Source of the DNA: a virus
Lineage: Duplodnaviria; Caudoviricetes
Length of the DNA: 64,000 nucleotides
Virus record (IMG/VR): IMGVR_UViG_3300036987_000100
Coordinates: 11,664-75,663 of that record
Strand: one strand, 5' to 3'
Shown: positions 3,375-54,994 of the stretch, piece after piece
Layout: every line of letters begins with the position of its first letter
Position numbering within the stretch: the first letter of the stretch is position 1
The notes under the pieces: model-generated
What the model saw: only the letters and a program-made list of their open reading frames with translations
Database searches by the model: none
What the model was told of the DNA's origin: nothing
Program-made: the position numbers and the translations under genes

Positions 3375-4162
3375 ACCTCCGAAGCGACCACATGGTCGCT
3401 TGTTGGTTGAAAAGTTTTCAGGGCCAGGCTCTCGTAGCGACTGCCGCGCGAACCGCCCAGCCACACGCTGCTAGGGAGAATGGAGGTCTCCAACAAAAAG
3501 GCTTTCTGGATTTTTGACGCAGCATTCAAAACAACCAAGAAATGATACTTGGCTTTTCGATTGGTGGTATCGAAATGACAGCGGCCCCGATAGGGTCGAG
3601 AAGTCTTCACCTCTACCGGAGCCCCATCCAGCAGAAAGTCGTGCTCTGCGTACCAGTGCGTAGCCGAAATAGATACCGCAGTAGGGAATAAGCTCCCAAA
3701 GTAAGAAAGACCTATCTTGGCTAAGCGTACTCTCGGATCGCTTTCGTTTCCAGAGGTGAGCTGTTCTCTGCGAGATAAGCTGATATGGCTGCTTGCGGGA
3801 AGCGCCTCTAGATTAAGTATGTGGTTATCGAGCTTGTCGCCGTTCTTGTGGTGTATGTGCCAACCATCAGGAGTAGACCCATGAGTAGTCTCCCACACCA
3901 CAATAGGTTCAAAGACGTAGCCATGCCTATCGGCTCTCCTGTGTCTTGGGGCATAAATTCGTCTGTAGCCTCCGGCGATACTCGACTTGCCTTCCAGTCT
4001 TCTTCCGGCCGGACGTCGCGCAACTCCCTCCGCCTTTAGTAGATTGCTTATAGTAACAGGGGCACACGCATATAGAGCGCCCAATGACGCAGTTGTTTCC
4101 CCCGAGACATACGCATAGACAACGCGTGCTCTGTCCTCGGGAGTAACGAATAATTTTTTCAT
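3371..4162 (-). CDS. Free-standing HNH (homing) endonuclease with N-terminal HTH
   Basis: WHIHHKNGDKLDNHILNLEAL is an HNH_3-type motif. Confidence 0.8.
   Translation of the reverse strand: MKKLFVTPEDRARVVYAYVSGETTASLGALYACAPVTISNLLKAEGVARRPAGRRLEGKSSIAGGYRRIYAPRHRRADRHGYVFEPIVVWETTHGSTPDGWHIHHKNGDKLDNHILNLEALPASSHISLSRREQLTSGNESDPRVRLAKIGLSYFGSLFPTAVSISATHWYAEHDFLLDGAPVEVKTSRPYRGRCHFDTTNRKAKYHFLVVLNAASKIQKAFLLETSILPSSVWLGGSRGSRYESLALKTFQPTSDHVVASEV
3384..3399. repeat. 16-bp palindrome copy 1, GCGACCACATGGTCGC
   Basis: Read directly; inside the 3' end of the HNH gene, 9 nt before the next ATG. Confidence 0.95.
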
Positions 4163-6801
4163 CAGAACGGAACGCTCCCCGGGTCACCCGAGCCACCACC
4201 AATATCAATCGGCTCAATTACATCCCCGCTGCCCTGCGCCAAAACCTCACTGAAGTTGCTCGATTCGAAATCCCAATTAAGTTCGAAGTCCCGGCCGTCA
4301 CCATCTCGAACCTTGAGTTGCTTCACCTGCATTCGCTTCTCTTTCTTATTGTCGTCGGTCTGTACTAGACCAAAAATCAGGGTCGAGTGCCAGACCGCCG
4401 CATCCGTCAAAGCGATGCTTTCGGCAGTAGCAGTGGCAGCCTGGTTTTTCTTCACTTCACGATTGAACTGAGAAGTCACCACAATAGGCAACTTCTTGGA
4501 CATCGTTAGTCTCTTCACTTCACTGAAGGCGTTTGCGGCCTGCTCGATGCGGTCCTTGCCTGGTACCTTGATGAGGTAGATACCGTCAATAATCACCATT
4601 TCAGGCTGCGCCTCGTCTATAGCCGCAGCAAGCGTTTCAACCCGAAAATCAAAATTACCACCAACAACCGTCAGACCCTTCTCATTCAAAACATTCTTGG
4701 TAGCCTTCTCCAGCCGCTCTCTCTCAAAAACGGTAAGCTGACCAGAGCGCACTCGACCAAACGGAAGCTTTTCTTTGAGCGCAAAGAATCGCAGCGCAAT
4801 TCTCATTTTGCTCATTTCCGTCGTTACGTAGAGCACCTTGTGCTTCCGAAACACCTCTGTGAGAGGTCCGTAGTTGCCTTGGTCATCGCGGACCTTGGTC
4901 CACAGTTTATAGCCAGTCGAGGCGTGCTCCGCGAGCATCAGGCTGGCAAAGGTATTGTGAACGATAATGTCGTTGGCGACAAAACAACTGGTAGGCTCGA
5001 CGGTCAAGTCGTAGATTTTCTGTTGGCCAACGTCCTCGATGCTCTCAATAACGTCCCAAAAAATATCAGAGGACCAAAGCCACCTGTACTCCGACTCGAT
5101 TCCAAATACCTCGCAAAAAGCCTTAAAGGGACGAAGCCAGAGAGAGCCGTTGGCTCCAAACATATCTCGGACACCGAAATAGGAATTCTGCCCAGCCTTG
5201 TGCGCCGGATCTCTCCCTAAGAGCTTAGCCACTCGCACAAGTGAACCATCGCCAGTCCAGCGCCCAGAGCGCGCCTTCGCAAGTGCTGCTATCTTTGCCT
5301 CGAATTCCCTCGACACGCGCGGGTACCCAACGTTGGTATTACGCTTCTTTTTAAGAAGAGCAGTAACTCTTTGCGCCTTCTCGCCCCACAAGTGTACTTC
5401 GCGTGCGAAATTCTCCAAGGAAGAGGAGTACACTCTTAAGCGCCACGCATCGAACTTCTTGCCGTCACAGGTCGCCTGTTTGTATCCAACGCTGCTCTGA
5501 ATACCTAGGCGGAGCAAAAGACTTTGTAGCTGGCGCACCATCTTTTCGGAAGCCAGGGTTACACCGGGGCCGGTACTGTCGACGTAACCATCGCACATCC
5601 AAAAGGTCGAAATGAACTCAGATAGAGACTTCGTGGGTAGACGGTAAACAACAGCAGGAATGGTCTTGTGTTTAGCTAAGATGCCATCCATCCCATATTG
5701 CCGCAGTAACGCTTTAACTGGTCGGCCTAACCCCTCATCCCAAGCGAAAGCATAGTCATAGTTTGCACGGTGGCGCACTTCGACCCCAAAAGCACGAGCC
5801 GCCTCATGGGCACGCTCTAGAATCTCAGGATCCGCAGTACTAAATCCGACAGTGCGACTCGTATAAGAGCCCTCGGCGAGCAACAATGCCAACAAGAATA
5901 CGGTCTCAGAAGGTAAATCCTCTGGATGTTCAGGAGCGGGCATTCTGGCTGGAAGTGCAACAGTCATCCCAACCTTAAACTGTTCCGCAGGTTTCCAACC
6001 CTCTGCCGTCAAAAGAGGGTGCTCCGGAGTAACCGTTACAGAACGTCCTGACGCGTAAGTGAATTTTAGACAACGCTTGTGTCCTGTATCCACCTTGGCA
6101 GTAATCGGCGTGGAGTGAATCCCCTTCTCCGGACTCCAAGTGGTGACCAGCTTGAGAGAGGGGGTCGATACCACTTCTTCAATAGTGTGCTCTTCACCTG
6201 TCTCTGGATCGACAATGCGCGTGGAGGCACAAACACACTTCCCAATTCCGCTTCGGGCCACAAAGAGAATTAGCTCCTCTTTATTGAATCCAAGCGTGGT
6301 GTCATTCATGGTCGCCCACGGCGTCATGATTCCACGCTCACCCGCCTCCATTCGCAGGTAGTAGTCCCAAACATTGGGACCCTCATCAAACATCGAGGTC
6401 ACTCTGGAGTCAGCGGCCCCAACCTGAAGACGCTGGATGCGATAAACGGCCTGCTGTAACTCTTCAAACGACTCTATGTTTTGCTGGCTCTTAAGAAGAT
6501 CCAGCGCAGTGTCAACGGAGCGCTTTACCTCGTTGCCAATAGCATTCTTGAGGATTTCATCTGCCCAAAATCCAGCAGTACAGCCATCCATCGCGGGAGG
6601 GAGCGGGATACCGAGCTTAGCCTCAATTACCCCAACATCAGGTAGGGCTCCGTACTGCGAATAATGAATCGCGATGTACTCAAGGGCGGGCGCAGCTACC
6701 CCCTGGAGAATCTCCGGAGGAATCGCCCGAGAGAGGAACTCCCGGTAGGCGGGTTTGCCCCCGTCCAATATGGCTCGAACCAGCGACTGCGTGAAATCCA
6801 C
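4162..6801 (-). CDS. dnaB: Replicative DnaB-like helicase containing an intein
   Basis: Walker A ARSGIGK/T split by the insert; YVTTEMS, VIIDGIYL and VVTSQFNR SF4 motifs. Confidence 0.92.
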   Translation of the reverse strand: MDFTQSLVRAILDGGKPAYREFLSRAIPPEILQGVAAPALEYIAIHYSQYGALPDVGVIEAKLGIPLPPAMDGCTAGFWADEILKNAIGNEVKRSVDTALDLLKSQQNIESFEELQQAVYRIQRLQVGAADSRVTSMFDEGPNVWDYYLRMEAGERGIMTPWATMNDTTLGFNKEELILFVARSGIGKCVCASTRIVDPETGEEHTIEEVVSTPSLKLVTTWSPEKGIHSTPITAKVDTGHKRCLKFTYASGRSVTVTPEHPLLTAEGWKPAEQFKVGMTVALPARMPAPEHPEDLPSETVFLLALLLAEGSYTSRTVGFSTADPEILERAHEAARAFGVEVRHRANYDYAFAWDEGLGRPVKALLRQYGMDGILAKHKTIPAVVYRLPTKSLSEFISTFWMCDGYVDSTGPGVTLASEKMVRQLQSLLLRLGIQSSVGYKQATCDGKKFDAWRLRVYSSSLENFAREVHLWGEKAQRVTALLKKKRNTNVGYPRVSREFEAKIAALAKARSGRWTGDGSLVRVAKLLGRDPAHKAGQNSYFGVRDMFGANGSLWLRPFKAFCEVFGIESEYRWLWSSDIFWDVIESIEDVGQQKIYDLTVEPTSCFVANDIIVHNTFASLMLAEHASTGYKLWTKVRDDQGNYGPLTEVFRKHKVLYVTTEMSKMRIALRFFALKEKLPFGRVRSGQLTVFERERLEKATKNVLNEKGLTVVGGNFDFRVETLAAAIDEAQPEMVIIDGIYLIKVPGKDRIEQAANAFSEVKRLTMSKKLPIVVTSQFNREVKKNQAATATAESIALTDAAVWHSTLIFGLVQTDDNKKEKRMQVKQLKVRDGDGRDFELNWDFESSNFSEVLAQGSGDVIEPIDIGGGSGDPGSVPF
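4954..6237 (-). mobile_element. Intein (428 aa) with LAGLIDADG homing endonuclease
   Basis: Begins C(VCASTRI), has TPEHPLL block B, LLLAEGS and FWMCDGYV endonuclease helices, ends IIVHN followed by +1 Thr. Confidence 0.92.
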
Positions 6802-9733: not shown

Positions 9734-9749
9734 CAGTTATGTCGCTTGG

Positions 9750-9998
9750 AAAAAAATAGGGTGACCCTGCTGGTCTCAGATCGGAGTGCCGGGGACTAAC
9801 TCTCGTTGCGCGAAACAGGGGGAAACGCGCACGGAACCCCGACCCCGAATCCAGCAGGGCCACCCTATAAAGGAGTGAGTACCACAAAGGCGTATTCAAG
9901 CAAGCTCCCCCTGTTTGAAACCGCAAGGTTTCTCAAACAAGGGAGGCTGAGACCCGCCGAAGCTTGAGAACGAAGGGGCTTGTACGCTTCGCTCACTT
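9750..9998 (-). ncRNA. Candidate structured non-coding RNA or attenuator leader
   Basis: 18-bp stem 9756-9773/9851-9868 followed by a T run on the minus strand; second multi-stem domain 9873-9998; no convincing CDS; strand not certain. Confidence 0.5.
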
Positions 9999-10040
9999 AC
10001 TTAGCAAGGCCCTAGATGTAGTGGGTACCTTTTCTTTGGA

Positions 10041-10826
10041 CTACTCCTTATCGGAGTCACTGCCTGGTTCAGTTTCTGCAAGGTCCTGCAGGCTTTCCCG
10101 TAAGTGCCTCTCGTAATCCCCGACCCAGTCATACGCGGAGGCTTCTCCTTCCCCCTCCTCCTCTTCGTAATTGAAGTCGAAGTCATCGGCAGTTCCCTTG
10201 AGTTGAGCTGCCACAAGCGAATCCACTCGTCGCCTCTCTCGCCTGGACTCGACGTCGGAGTAGCGCATGCTCTCCGAGATGCCAGAAGCCTTCAGGCGCG
10301 CATTTCGGGCCTTACGGCTGGTGTCCAAATCGAGCCCCAAGTCGCTCTGGTACGCACTCTTAGAGCCCTTGCCCCCGTAGCGGCCATCGTCCGTCTTGTC
10401 GTAGCCGAGCCAAGCATTACCTGAGCGGCCCTTGGCCTCATCTACTTCGAGTCGCCGAAGAGTGTCTTCTGCCGCCTTCATGATGGACCAAACCTGCATA
10501 TACAAGTTATGCCGGGCATAACCCTGTGTCCGGGAGACGCCATTCTTGAAATTGGTGTAGTCGATGGAAAGAACCGCTTTCGACATCGCCTCTGCAAATT
10601 CCTTCCGCCACGCCAGCGCGCGGTAGGGGTAGTCGGCGCCCGTAGGTGTTGCGACGATGTCTCCAAGGTTTGGGAGCCACTTTTGCTGCAACAGCTCCAA
10701 GTCCCCCTTCACGCGGGAACGGACGAGCAGCAAGTCCCTGTCCTGCCGGTGCTCAATTACGCTGAAGTACCCGAATCCCGAGAAAATCCACAATGTAGTA
10801 ACCAACCTTTCTAGTGTCTCCCACAC
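10041..10826 (-). CDS. Conserved phage/bacterial hypothetical protein (WIF...GYFSV...VRSRV..DL...DYPYRA...IDYTNFK)
   Basis: 261 aa; true start may be TTG 10793; acidic tail. Confidence 0.7.
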   Translation of the reverse strand: MWETLERLVTTLWIFSGFGYFSVIEHRQDRDLLLVRSRVKGDLELLQQKWLPNLGDIVATPTGADYPYRALAWRKEFAEAMSKAVLSIDYTNFKNGVSRTQGYARHNLYMQVWSIMKAAEDTLRRLEVDEAKGRSGNAWLGYDKTDDGRYGGKGSKSAYQSDLGLDLDTSRKARNARLKASGISESMRYSDVESRRERRRVDSLVAAQLKGTADDFDFNYEEEEGEGEASAYDWVGDYERHLRESLQDLAETEPGSDSDKE

Positions 10827-11619: not shown

Positions 11620-11958
11620 TCATTTCTCCTCGGGTTTACGACGAGAAGGCATTCGGTGATCGCCCTCCCGGGTCGCCGCTTCACACATCTTTCGCAGCTT
11701 ATCCCTTTCTCGGTTGTATACCTCAGCCGCCGCGTTCACGATGCGTGCTTGTGCGTCTGCTTCTGGGCCTTCTACCCAAGCCGCGACACGCTCACGCCAA
11801 GCGAGGAGCCAAGCGTAGTCCTCCGGCATCATACCATCCGTGCGCATGTCCTTCAGTGGAACCTGAATGTACTGTTTGGCAGGATGCTTGGCGTATTCCG
11901 CTTTTTCTTCCTGGGAGATAATTCTGATTGTCATGACATCCTCGCTGGCGGGCTCCAC
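11620..11958 (-). CDS. Hypothetical protein
   Basis: 112 aa; start may be ATG 11937. Confidence 0.6.
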   Translation of the reverse strand: MEPASEDVMTIRIISQEEKAEYAKHPAKQYIQVPLKDMRTDGMMPEDYAWLLAWRERVAAWVEGPEADAQARIVNAAAEVYNRERDKLRKMCEAATREGDHRMPSRRKPEEK

Positions 11959-12461
11959 ACAGGCGTCGGTCGTGGCTCGGGTTCCTTCGGAGGAACCGGT
12001 GGTGGAAGAACTTCCACGACAGTCGGAACCTCAGACTCCGTGATGGCCGAAATCCAGAGCCCCAACTTTTTGATGTCTTCGGCCGAGGGGTCTTTTGCGT
12101 GCGTCAAGGTGAGGTAAAGCTTTCGCAAGCTGGGCAAGCAACGAGTCAGCTCCACCTTCGTAGGCCGATTCACCGCCGGGCTCTTTTGGGCAGCCTTCTC
12201 AGCCTTCTTGCCCGTCATGGCCCAAGCCTTGGCATTGCGCCCCGTTACCCTGCAGGCCCGGACGCTCTTCACGTAGAGAACACCCAAGGCCCCGAGCCCA
12301 GCAAGGCGCTTATGCGCAGACGAGGAGCGCAAAGCTTCGTCCAACTCTCGCCCCGTCATGGAATCGTGCCGAGCAACTTCAGTCGCAACCTCCCGCTGCA
12401 CGTGTTCTAGCGTGCGGTCCTCCAGGACCTCCCAATAGGCTTCAACAGCCATTGTCTTCAT
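11931..12461 (-). CDS. Hypothetical protein, possible winged HTH
   Basis: SAHKRLAGLGALG...CRVTGRNAKAW resembles phage wHTH proteins; Pro-rich tail. Confidence 0.6.
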   Translation of the reverse strand: MKTMAVEAYWEVLEDRTLEHVQREVATEVARHDSMTGRELDEALRSSSAHKRLAGLGALGVLYVKSVRACRVTGRNAKAWAMTGKKAEKAAQKSPAVNRPTKVELTRCLPSLRKLYLTLTHAKDPSAEDIKKLGLWISAITESEVPTVVEVLPPPVPPKEPEPRPTPVWSPPARMS

Positions 12462-12469
12462 AGCTGCCC

Positions 12470-12498
12470 ACCCTACACCGCTGGACTGCGATTGTCAA
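12470..12498 (-). promoter_or_regulatory. Sigma70-like promoter TTGACA-N17-TAGGGT
   Basis: Directly upstream of ORF 12461. Confidence 0.7.
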
Positions 12499-12535: not shown

Positions 12536-12574
12536 AAACAAAAAGCCCTTTCCGCGCCGAAGCACAGAAAGAGC
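12536..12574 (-). terminator. Intrinsic terminator with cUUCGg tetraloop
   Basis: GCTCTTTCTGTGC-TTCG-GCGCGGAAAGGGC then TTTTTGTTT; G-U pairs fit the minus strand. Confidence 0.85.
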
Positions 12575-12677
12575 CTTTTGCCTGTCCTGAGCGATATGCC
12601 CCCGGACAGGAGGGGCTAGGGAGTTCTTCGGAAGAAGGCGGGGATTCCGAAGGGGGTCTCGCCCTGACCCGGGGTAC
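12536..12677 (-). ncRNA. Candidate small RNA (~140 nt)
   Basis: Own promoter (12684-12712) and terminator, no ATG-started ORF, three internal hairpins with C-rich loops and linkers. Confidence 0.6.
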
Positions 12678-12683
12678 TTCAGC

Positions 12684-12712
12684 AAGGTACTTGGTACCCT
12701 AAGGCTTGTCAA
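12684..12712 (-). promoter_or_regulatory. Sigma70-like promoter TTGACA-N17-TACCTT
   Basis: Points into the ORF-free 12536-12677 segment. Confidence 0.6.
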
Positions 12713-13061
12713 GCTCCGCGACCACATGGTCGCTGTGCCCCGAGAGAAAGCGGGCCTCTCGCTCCTGCAGCTCGTGGTCGAAGACCTCAAACACCTGGGC
12801 CCGCAACAGATGAGGGCTTACACCCGCGTCTAATGGCTTTGCGAGCGCGAGATGAATCAGCGCCCGAAAATACCGACGCAAGATATGAATATCGGCCAAG
12901 TCTAAATTTCCGGACCTAACAGCGGCATCTAACGCCGGAGCAAGCAGCAACATAATCCCTGTTCGGGTTGTCGGCGTCTTCTCGGCAGAGCTACCAGTAG
13001 TTGTGTCGCTCACGGGACCCCTCTTCGGGAGGCTTTTACGCGGTGATAACCACATTGTCAA
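12699..13061 (-). CDS. Hypothetical protein
   Basis: 120 aa in the track; a GTG start near 13011 is more likely (GAGGGG RBS, TTGACA at 13056-13061). Confidence 0.55.
   Translation of the reverse strand: MTMWLSPRKSLPKRGPVSDTTTGSSAEKTPTTRTGIMLLLAPALDAAVRSGNLDLADIHILRRYFRALIHLALAKPLDAGVSPHLLRAQVFEVFDHELQEREARFLSGHSDHVVAELDKP
12718..12733. repeat. 16-bp palindrome copy 3, GCGACCACATGGTCGC
   Basis: In the CDS 3' end, 5 nt upstream of a TTGACA box. Confidence 0.95.
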
Positions 13062-15050: not shown

Positions 15051-15581
15051 CTACGGGTTTTCGGTCGCCTTGAAGGCGGGCACAACTCCGTAAACTATAC
15101 CTATGACGGCTGCAATTCCGGTTACCATTCCGAAGGCTACGCCAATTTCCATGGCATGAAGCTGAAACCAACTAGGCTGCATCCGTTGGATGGTTTCACT
15201 GGCGTCCCGGAGGCGGGCCTCATAGAGGGCGCGCTGTGCAGAGAATACCGCCCTGTCCGCGATGTAGTTGGCTCGAAGTTGAACGTAGCCAAGTTGGAAG
15301 AGCTTCAGCCTCGTAATTCTTTCCTCGGAAACAAGGAGGCCCCCGCGCCCTGGGCACGGCGTAGTGGCGGATGGTGCTATTTCCCCGTCCTTACCAATGC
15401 ACTCCTCTTCGTCAAGAGGGATTATCCAATCCCCGTCCCTCGGCTCCACCTTCTCCGTGGATGGATCTACAGGAAGTGGCTGGGCCTCCACCCACTTCGC
15501 TTCGGGAATAGTCAATGGGACGGGTGCCAGCGTGGCGCAGCTCGAAAGCAGCGCCAGCAGGGCTAAGCAACCTCGCCGCAT
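15051..15581 (-). CDS. Lipoprotein with C-terminal transmembrane helix, candidate unimolecular spanin
   Basis: Start ATG 15581, MRRGCLALLALLSSC lipobox; helical or coiled-coil middle; hydrophobic IGVAFGMVTGIAAVIGIVYGVV at the C-terminus. Confidence 0.6.
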   Translation of the reverse strand: MRRGCLALLALLSSCATLAPVPLTIPEAKWVEAQPLPVDPSTEKVEPRDGDWIIPLDEEECIGKDGEIAPSATTPCPGRGGLLVSEERITRLKLFQLGYVQLRANYIADRAVFSAQRALYEARLRDASETIQRMQPSWFQLHAMEIGVAFGMVTGIAAVIGIVYGVVPAFKATENP

Positions 15582-15582
15582 G

Positions 15583-15984
15583 TTACTGCGCCTTAAGCAG
15601 CTTAGCCCGAAGCTTGTCTGCCTTATCGGTGTGGAAGCCCACTTGAGTGGTGTAGTGATGCAGGTCCCCCGAGCCACGGCCGGGTCCGTATTTACGTCCC
15701 GGGGTCTTCGGTTTGGTTGCCTTCTCGACTTCAGCCGCGCGGTTCCGGTTCGCGTCAGCAGCCGCTCGGTGAAGATCATGAAGCGTCTTCAGATTCTTGG
15801 CCTTCTGCTTCGGAGTCAAATTCTTACCCGTATGCAGCTTATACTTCCCGAAAAGCTCCTTAACCTTCACCTCGCCGGGTCCGGACCTGACGGCGTCCAA
15901 GCTAAAAGCCCTTGGGTCCCGTCCCGTCTTCTTCAGTGACTCGATTTCCGCCAGCACCGCCATTGCTTCCATGAGTGTATTCAT
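15583..15984 (-). CDS. Basic hypothetical protein
   Basis: 133 aa, GGAG RBS. Confidence 0.55.
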   Translation of the reverse strand: MNTLMEAMAVLAEIESLKKTGRDPRAFSLDAVRSGPGEVKVKELFGKYKLHTGKNLTPKQKAKNLKTLHDLHRAAADANRNRAAEVEKATKPKTPGRKYGPGRGSGDLHHYTTQVGFHTDKADKLRAKLLKAQ

Positions 15985-54296: not shown

Positions 54297-54935
54297 CTAG
54301 TAACGCGCGCTCATCTGTTCGCAAACCTCTGCGAGCGCATTCCCCAAAGTAATTACCTGTGCAGGTGAGCTGCCTTGGTATACTTCTGCAATTTCTCTGT
54401 AGTACCAGATGGTGCCATCGCGCTTGCCCCGGAACCGGTCCCAGACGGTCCGTACGAGCAGCATGCGCTCTTCGGGGGTCTCTCCCAGCCCAGCCTCGTC
54501 CCGGGCCTTCCTGAGGTCTTCCAAGAGCCCTCGGGCGTTGTGCAGCTTGTCGCAGGCGCTCAGGAGCAACACGTCCGGAGTGGAAGTGCGGAGCTTCTCG
54601 AAGTTCCTCATGCGGAAGGCTTTCAGCGTCTCTTGAAGGTCCTCGTTGGTCTTGAAGCTCTTCCAGTCAATAGGCGGATTTGTCACCGCCTGCACCAAAT
54701 CGAGCACCGTCTGGCCGAACCCCACGAGGATGGTGTCTGGCTGGATGCCGCAGTCCTCGATGGTGTCGTGCAGCAAAGCGGCGCAGACCACGTCCTCACC
54801 GCCCCCATGTTCCAGCACCAAGCTGGCTACCGCCATGGGATGCGCGATGTAGGGCGTCTTGGACCCCTTTCGCTTCTGATTCCGGTGTGCGTGTGCCGCA
54901 AAGTTGAAAGCCGCTACCATTTTGTCGCTGTACAC
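54297..54935 (-). CDS. HD-domain (p)ppGpp hydrolase (small alarmone hydrolase, Mesh1/SpoT-HD-like)
   Basis: AH.NQ.RKG..TPYIAHP..VA, LLHDTIED, V..VT, ACDKLHN motifs. Confidence 0.85.
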   Translation of the reverse strand: MYSDKMVAAFNFAAHAHRNQKRKGSKTPYIAHPMAVASLVLEHGGGEDVVCAALLHDTIEDCGIQPDTILVGFGQTVLDLVQAVTNPPIDWKSFKTNEDLQETLKAFRMRNFEKLRTSTPDVLLLSACDKLHNARGLLEDLRKARDEAGLGETPEERMLLVRTVWDRFRGKRDGTIWYYREIAEVYQGSSPAQVITLGNALAEVCEQMSARY

Positions 54936-54965: not shown

Positions 54966-54994
54966 AGCCTATCATGCTAGACTGCTGTTGTCAA
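54966..54994 (-). promoter_or_regulatory. Sigma70-like promoter TTGACA-N17-TAGGCT
   Basis: Upstream of the hydrolase gene. Confidence 0.7.

Follow-up and report, generated by a model that had tools for sequence, protein, structure and literature searches.

A predicted small non-coding RNA gene, bounded by a promoter and a terminator, upstream of the replication block of an uncultivated tailed phage

What is encoded in the interval between a 120-amino-acid (aa) open reading frame (ORF) and a 176-aa gene of an uncultivated tailed phage, where a palindrome, a promoter-like sequence, a series of inverted repeats and a terminator follow one another? The locus lies on the minus strand of a 64-kb stretch of DNA, referred to here as the window, which is part of the 75.7-kb IMG/VR virus record IMGVR_UViG_3300036987_000100, estimated to be 59% complete. 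These elements might form a gene of their own, belong to one of the neighbouring genes or act as DNA; a preliminary description had taken them for a self-contained small RNA gene. Our analysis makes it very likely that the locus is a real, conserved gene for a phage non-coding RNA, equipped with a promoter and a terminator of its own and representing a new family in a known class. The locus as a whole is best explained as a gene in the phage early region that is transcribed independently into a non-coding RNA of about 141 nucleotides (nt), with a conserved core that acts in trans, and to this fuller proposal we would give about half of our credence. The parts of the unit are the following.

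12718..12733: palindrome GCGACCATGTGGTCGC, 16 bp, located within the final codons of the 120-aa ORF; 6 nt separate the end of its 14-bp core from the -35 box.
12684..12712, minus strand: predicted promoter P1, with the -35 box TTGACA at 12712-12707, a 17-nt spacer and the -10 box TACCTT at 12689-12684.
12536..12678, minus strand: predicted non-coding RNA of about 141 nt, its start placed some 7 nt after the -10 box and its end in the U tract.
12654..12670, minus strand: hairpin 1, GGGUC/GACCC with the 7-nt loop AGGGCGA, from sequence and fold.
12626..12652, minus strand: hairpin 2, CUUCGGA/UCCGAAG with the C-rich loop AUCCCCGCCUUCU, from sequence and fold.
12611..12625, minus strand: C-rich linker AACUCCCUAGCCCCU, unpaired in the consensus fold, a candidate seed or binding segment.
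12581..12610, minus strand: hairpin 3, CCUGUCC/GGACAGG with an inner stem of four pairs, nearly invariant.
12536..12580, minus strand: predicted intrinsic terminator; after an A tract comes a 19-pair hairpin with a long G+C stem and a UUCG loop, and then UUUUUGUUU.
12470..12498, minus strand: predicted promoter P2, TTGACA-N17-TAGGGT, whose end is 8 nt upstream of the start codon (ATG, 12461) of the 176-aa gene.

The order given by the preliminary description, namely the palindrome, TTGACA-N17-TACCTT, some 140 nt without an ATG, a UUCG hairpin with a U tract and the next TTGACA promoter, was recovered on the minus strand at the very places indicated, together with the hairpins GGGTC/GACCC, CTTCGGA/TCCGAAG (its middle pair) and CCTGTCC/GGACAGG and the C-rich single strands between them. 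Within the loop of hairpin 2, the C-rich stretch UCCCCGCCUUC is unpaired. Judging from the position of the -10 box, transcription from P1 would start near 12678. The terminator is one of the few canonical, strong ones on the minus strand.

Comparative evidence on the RNA comes from two sequences, that of the window (L001) and that of L002, the one syntenic contig found in a scan of JGI metagenomes. L002 shares the genes for the spanin-like, 96-aa, 120-aa and 176-aa proteins and for the next protein, at 36-86% amino-acid identity. By blastn, just four nucleotide stretches are common to both phages, one of them being the RNA module, with 75% identity over 202 nt. Between this module and the L002 homolog of the 120-aa protein (52% identity), which ends without the palindrome, there are two extra genes and about 220 nt. 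The L002 module is intergenic, 240 nt past a different upstream gene, and the similarity begins exactly at the palindrome, which holds the same relative place (4723-4738). Since the module is conserved from the palindrome on despite the different gene upstream, it is conserved for its own sake and not as the tail of a coding sequence.

Conservation is unevenly distributed along the module. The P1 hexamers are identical at 12/12 positions and keep their 17-nt spacing, with 9/17 spacer positions identical, and P2 reads TTGACA-N17-TATAGT in L002. The predicted RNA, about 141 nt long in both phages, shows identities of 5/10 in the 5' tail, 12/17 in hairpin 1, 20/28 in hairpin 2 (9/13 in its loop), 14/15 in the linker, 27/30 in hairpin 3 and 23/42 (55%) in the terminator. 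The linker, with the consensus AACUCCCUAGCCCYU, and hairpin 3 form a 45-nt core in which 41 of 45 positions (91%) are identical. In the adjacent gene, about 39% of third codon positions are identical (34/88, with 54 changes in 88 codons); at that rate, 41/45 identities in the core would have a chance probability of about 4e-13, and of about 1e-4 even at a rate of 66%. Judged by this comparison, the 45-nt core is constrained in sequence, and not in structure alone.

The structure itself is retained. The RNAalifold consensus comprises four helices with 37 pairs, all of which form in both sequences. Between the two copies, six pairs show double compensatory changes and seven are changed on one side, with none broken, and pairing drops to 39-64% when the 3' partners are slid by 1-3 columns as a control. 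The preliminary description had looked to covariation in related phages for support, which these six compensatory pairs supply, from two sequences only. In hairpin 1, two of the five pairs are changed on both sides in L002 (GAGUU/AACUC) and still pair; hairpin 2 keeps its 7/7 pairs with one compensatory and one G-U change; hairpin 3 keeps 11/11, ten of them unchanged; and the terminator keeps 14/14 scored pairs, three through double changes and five through G-U changes. The several G-U pairs indicate that the fold belongs to the minus strand. Compared with shuffled sequences, the whole unit folds with z-scores of -3.6 in the window and -3.9 in L002, a signal that comes mostly from the terminator.

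A second fold is available to the core. The helix GCCCCU/GGGGGC (12616-12611 with 12603-12598; alignment columns 65-70 and 78-83) excludes the lower stem of hairpin 3, and three of the four core changes fit it, among them the only double change of the core (C-G in the window, U-A in L002). This single covariation, noticed post hoc, suggests a possible switch or folding intermediate. A kissing interaction between the loops of hairpins 1 and 2 was also considered by eye and dropped, only three of its pairs being conserved in L002.

There is no ATG between 12683 and 12536, and the alternative starts of the window RNA are one GTG inside the terminator stem and one TTG in the U tract; the L002 RNA lacks any ATG, GTG or TTG. 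Substitutions are spread 7/10/11 over the codon positions of the sole open frame, versus 22/13/54 in the neighbouring real gene. The absence of codon periodicity, together with that of start codons in the L002 RNA, marks the RNA as non-coding. With promoter, structure and terminator conserved in L002, compensatory changes in the pairs and no coding signature, the in silico evidence establishes a self-contained unit that is conserved, structured and non-coding, in agreement with the preliminary description.

When might this RNA be made? The exact pattern TTGACA-N17-TAnnnT occurs only four times in the 64 kb, at 54994, 12712, 12498 and 10851, always on the gene (minus) strand. Three of these sites cluster at 10.8-12.7 kb, P1 being the first of the cluster. 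A looser pattern gave 3.4 +/- 1.9 sites on both strands of simulated sequence, and by our own arithmetic about 0.14 would be expected for the strict class. The exact sites look like the early promoters of the phage, read by the host polymerase, and an RNA located in this cluster ahead of the replication genes fits an early transcript, as had been anticipated.

Two side observations concern these promoters. At 54994-54930, a terminator and a promoter overlap compactly ahead of the gene starting at 54935: the TTGACA-N17 promoter has a -10 box, TAGGCT, that extends over the 5' arm of the hairpin GGCTCCCCTTC...GAAGGGGAGC, a terminator with TTTT after it. In addition, the cassette TTGACAATCGCAGTCCA is identical at 12498-12482 of the window and at 5738-5754 of L002. 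In the window it drives the 176-aa gene, whereas the gene driven by it in L002 is the homolog of window gene 10041-10826. Promoter cassettes appear to move between genes.

The palindrome upstream of P1 is one of a dispersed set. Its class is represented in the window by 21 strand-matches at 11 sites, allowing at most three mismatches, versus 0.79 expected; the form GCGACCAYRTGGTCGC is found at 3384, 9718, 12718, 27841, 34882, 38956, 43090, 56101 and 57912, and the other copies in the window lie mostly 12-25 nt before start codons. In IMG/VR, exact matches to the palindrome were obtained in 109 stretches, including at least eight contigs with two to five copies, one of them of 179 kb and 88% complete, and many of these loci (L005-L113) encode proteins 30-60% identical to those of the window. 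The palindrome marks a wider group of uncultivated phages. In one of them (L085 640-740, record G006), a homolog of the 120-aa protein is followed by a palindrome with one mismatch, a plain intrinsic terminator and a repeated cassette, ACCTTGACC...TATTA, with no small RNA between.

Its placement at promoters is also recurrent. In both phages, 6-7 nt separate the core of the palindrome from the -35 box of P1 downstream of it, and the arrangement of palindrome, 6-13 nt and TTGACA-N17/18-TAnnnT is present at five places on four contigs; the three pairs other than those at P1 drive protein genes (L002 5711, spanning 5710-5770; L077 431; L079 1358). By our estimate, about 0.1 such pairs would be expected by chance among the roughly 130 palindromes examined. 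The recomputed spacers fall into classes of 6-7 and 12-13 nt, and given these we make no claim of helical phasing between palindrome and promoter. The juxtaposition suggests that the palindrome is an operator or activator site for host-type promoters, and it is plausible that P1 is under the control of a palindrome-binding factor. Such control had been raised in the preliminary description; the conservation of the juxtaposition in L002 and its recurrence at promoters of related phages speak for it.

Action of the RNA in trans, the kind of target and regulation by the palindrome are what we infer. Host RNA polymerase of the sigma-70 type would initiate at P1 (TTGACA-N17-TACCTT) and produce a transcript of three hairpins joined by C-rich single strands, ending at the strong intrinsic terminator; the 176-aa gene would then be transcribed from its own promoter, P2. 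The 45-nt core would be the functional part, most likely trans-acting, either by base pairing with messenger RNAs (mRNAs) of the host or the phage where these are G-rich or resemble a Shine-Dalgarno sequence, or by binding a protein. The conserved, C-rich and unpaired linker is the likely seed. The palindrome would probably put P1 under a DNA-binding factor common to many transcription units of the phage group.

A precedent for the pairing mode exists in RsaE/RoxS and in Staphylococcus RNAIII, where C-rich unpaired loops between stable hairpins pair with G-rich Shine-Dalgarno regions. The window RNA resembles them in having C-rich unpaired UCCCC, CUCCCU and GCCCCUCC between its hairpins, and a 3' terminator. 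It differs in that only the linker motif is conserved in L002, and in that those RNAs are Gram-positive, whereas the host here is probably, on a weak lead taken up below, a member of the Myxococcota and not a Firmicute. Neither homology to the RsaE/RoxS family nor a set of at least two conserved unpaired C-rich motifs was found, and we do not assign the RNA to that type.

Several observations weigh against the proposal of a structured, trans-acting RNA. The -10 box of P1 matches TATAAT at three of six positions. In the shuffle control, 10 of 500 alignments reached the observed covariation, which is near the best attainable with six variable pairs and two sequences, so that the test has little power. 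Without the terminator, the 99-nt body folds with z-scores of -1.1 (window) and -1.7 (L002), and is not significantly more stable than shuffled sequences; as the body is not unusually stable, the case for its structure rests on covariation and not on folding energy. The C-run of the hairpin 2 loop changes from UCCCC to UACCG in L002, and CCUCC in the linker is not strictly conserved there, the conserved linker motif being CUCCCU. The preliminary description had the C-rich loops repressing mRNAs through Shine-Dalgarno pairing; for phage targets this finds no support, since in a duplex scan of the linker region against all minus-strand phage RNA the best value, -33.6 kcal/mol, lies within the range of shuffled seeds (-30.8 to -38.5). 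Finally, a covariance model of the RNA body (R1) found no RNA in seven whole records of more distant relatives, and exact-pattern scans of IMG/VR for the RNA core returned no homolog.

The distribution of the RNA is correspondingly narrow. The same covariance model recovered only the two copies, with no paralog in the phage record, and gave no match below an E-value of about 1 among the 109 palindrome-bearing loci. The Rfam search brought no known family to light: Rfam 15 has no match in the whole window at gathering thresholds, and none over the RNA of L001 or L002 at E<=5. In a pattern scan of genome_contigs/GTDB, covering 185,579 species genomes, a single match in an Actinomycetota metagenome-assembled genome had neither the linker nor the other hairpins and was rejected as chance. 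One relative has a different gene order and no RNA unit. Its absence from the relatives examined suggests that the RNA is young or fast-evolving, as small RNAs (sRNAs) often are. The Logan and ENA contigs encoding P0002 and P0003 probably carry further copies.

The genes on either side are relevant to the alternatives weighed below.

12699..13061, minus strand: upstream 120-aa gene, an ORF whose last 12 or so codons run into the palindrome and the -35 box.
11931..12461, minus strand: downstream 176-aa gene, function unassigned, which adjoins the RNA unit in both phages, with its ATG at 12461.

The minus strand carries nearly all long ORFs of the window. The 120-aa ORF has its TAG stop (12701-12699) inside the P1 spacer, the palindrome and the -35 box overlapping its last codons, and it belongs to a two-gene unit at 13348-12699. 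Beyond the RNA unit, in the direction of transcription, come small genes and then a replication block with an O-like initiator, an intein-bearing DnaB helicase and a primase; ahead of this operon, at 9750-10007, there is a further promoter with a structured RNA and a U7 terminator. Upstream of the unit are a lipoprotein/transmembrane protein, baseplate and other large proteins, and a single plus-strand gene for a Cys-rich lipoprotein. The lipoprotein/transmembrane protein is read as spanin-like. Its real start in 15051-15779 is probably M67; read from there, the protein resembles a unimolecular spanin, with a lipobox (LLSSC) and a transmembrane segment at the C terminus. The L002 protein, 65% identical, begins at that same point. 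The Atlas clusters nearest to the Cys-rich lipoprotein are mostly from Myxococcota, a weak lead towards a myxobacterial host.

The 176-aa protein has homologs of 62-63% identity in Logan and ENA assemblies and of 60% identity in L002, its sole profile match being phrog_1123 (unknown function), with none in Pfam, NCBIfam or PDB. An impression of a helix-turn-helix could not be verified, and the AlphaFold model is too poor for use (pLDDT 48). Its mRNA from P2 would be almost leaderless; L002 has some 22 additional nt there, with a GGAG ribosome-binding site. No match to GenBank phages was obtained by blastn with the region or by tblastn with the 176-aa and 452-aa proteins, and a search of IMG/VR for loci related through the 120-aa, 176-aa and spanin-like proteins yielded no relatives.

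The main rival, unlikely in our view and still the one that fares best, is a cis-acting early leader, either a conditional terminator or an element of processive antitermination, in which the structured RNA would alter the polymerase transcribing it or govern the terminator behind it. P1 transcripts would then continue through the 176-aa gene and beyond the next terminator, near 9740, as far as the replication genes, and the off state would leave the short RNA as a by-product. Leader RNAs that are terminated close to their promoter and linked to antitermination include the 6S RNA of lambda PR', StxS of Stx phages and the HK022 put RNA, with which the locus shares a constitutive-looking promoter, a short structured RNA, a strong terminator upstream of a phage gene block and a protein-binding DNA site at the promoter. 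The element adjoins the first of the three early promoters of the cluster on one side and a strong terminator on the other, the combination of promoter, structured RNA and U7 terminator is met again ahead of the replication operon, and an invariant core would suit an RNA bound by a protein or by the polymerase. A read-through transcript would, moreover, supply the 176-aa gene, almost leaderless from P2 in the window, with a GGTGG Shine-Dalgarno-like element. The locus departs from such leaders in having P2, a separate promoter conserved between terminator and gene in both phages. By inspection, no conserved antiterminator pairs with the terminator's 5' arm, the sequence there differing from one phage to the other, and the terminator is strong, its long stem being maintained by compensatory changes. 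We identified no Q- or N-like gene and no similarity to put, and no Rfam leader or antitermination family matches.

An alternative that we consider distinctly improbable makes the region mainly the 3' untranslated region (UTR) and boundary terminator of the upstream two-gene unit, whose mRNA would be stabilised and ended by the hairpins and kept apart from the early genes, with P1 minor or incidental and the RNA functionless. In the window, the unit does follow the 120-aa ORF directly and shares its terminator, few other strong terminators exist on the minus strand, and in the distant relative G006 the homologous ORF is succeeded by a copy of the palindrome and a plain terminator only. The position of the module in L002, beyond a different gene and conserved from the palindrome onward, is at odds with this, as are P1 hexamers and spacing that persist while the spacer has diverged, and a core conserved far above the need of a stabilising hairpin next to a terminator free to vary. 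The overlap recalls sRNAs of the MicL/DapZ type, which reside in a 3' UTR and are transcribed from a promoter within the preceding coding region: in the window, the final codons of the 120-aa ORF include the -35 box, the spacer includes its stop, and the terminator is shared with the mRNA. In contrast to that type, the L002 module is free-standing, so the overlap with a coding sequence in the window appears incidental and not defining.

Still less probable is an element acting as DNA, in which CCTGTCC-N16-GGACAGG and the linker would be a site bound by protein, for instance an operator for the 176-aa protein, an origin or a recombination site. Hairpin 3 hardly varies and so offers no covariation, and its conservation cannot by itself separate DNA from RNA; besides, this inverted repeat is next to a gene with no assigned function, and the two are linked in both phages. 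The compensatory and G-U changes in hairpins 1 and 2 and in the terminator are, however, of the RNA type and on the transcribed strand, and the site is inside a unit bounded by promoter and terminator. ARAGORN detected no transfer RNA (tRNA) or transfer-messenger RNA (tmRNA), there is no integrase near the unit, and host genomes gave nothing beyond the chance Actinomycetota match, on which grounds a tRNA, tmRNA or attP was likewise rejected.

The small basic protein that could be read from the frame open across the region in both phages (window 12790-12473; L002 4700-4948), over about 80 codons and with 52.5% identity over 59 aa in tblastn, is highly improbable and was rejected on the codon-position statistics and the missing starts, given also that its amino-acid identity is 0.63 as against 0.61 in another frame (at 73% nucleotide identity), that the P1 transcript offers no start codon with a ribosome-binding site, that the frame continues through the terminator and P2, and that C-rich sequence seldom contains stop codons.

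An independently transcribed RNA acting through its core is, accordingly, the explanation we favour, and it has counterparts among phages. In virulent Pseudomonas phages, many short non-coding RNA candidates have been mapped, several of them arising by termination in 5' leaders, and the transcriptome maps contain both independent sRNAs and terminated leaders (PMC10914365). Like DicF, IpeX and these Pseudomonas phage candidates (PMC10914365), the window RNA is short, non-coding, bounded by promoter and terminator and placed between protein genes; in contrast to them, it has no sequence or structure homology to families described in Rfam and is known here by comparison only.

The finding, which we consider solid if of an unsurprising kind, adds a candidate family that is absent from Rfam. 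The sRNAs of lytic and uncultivated phages are, to our knowledge, poorly catalogued, and we know of almost none from phages of Myxococcota-like hosts. Here, sequence alone suffices to define an RNA, through the conservation of its promoter, the covariation in its hairpins, the invariance of its core and the presence of a terminator, and ties it to a dispersed palindrome that marks transcription units across a metagenomic phage group. A more speculative idea, which we regard as a long shot, is that this is no ordinary base-pairing sRNA but the RNA arm of a regulatory circuit restricted to this group of large uncultivated phages, which probably infect Myxococcota: an early transcript controlled by the palindrome, whose core switches between hairpin 3 and the alternative helix and binds or titrates a defence component or a factor of the host, be it RNA polymerase, Rho or some other RNA-binding protein, driving takeover of the host or the early-late switch. 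Whichever of these roles it may have, the RNA and its 45-nt core would provide a concrete handle on the control of early expression in these phages, or on their action on the host.

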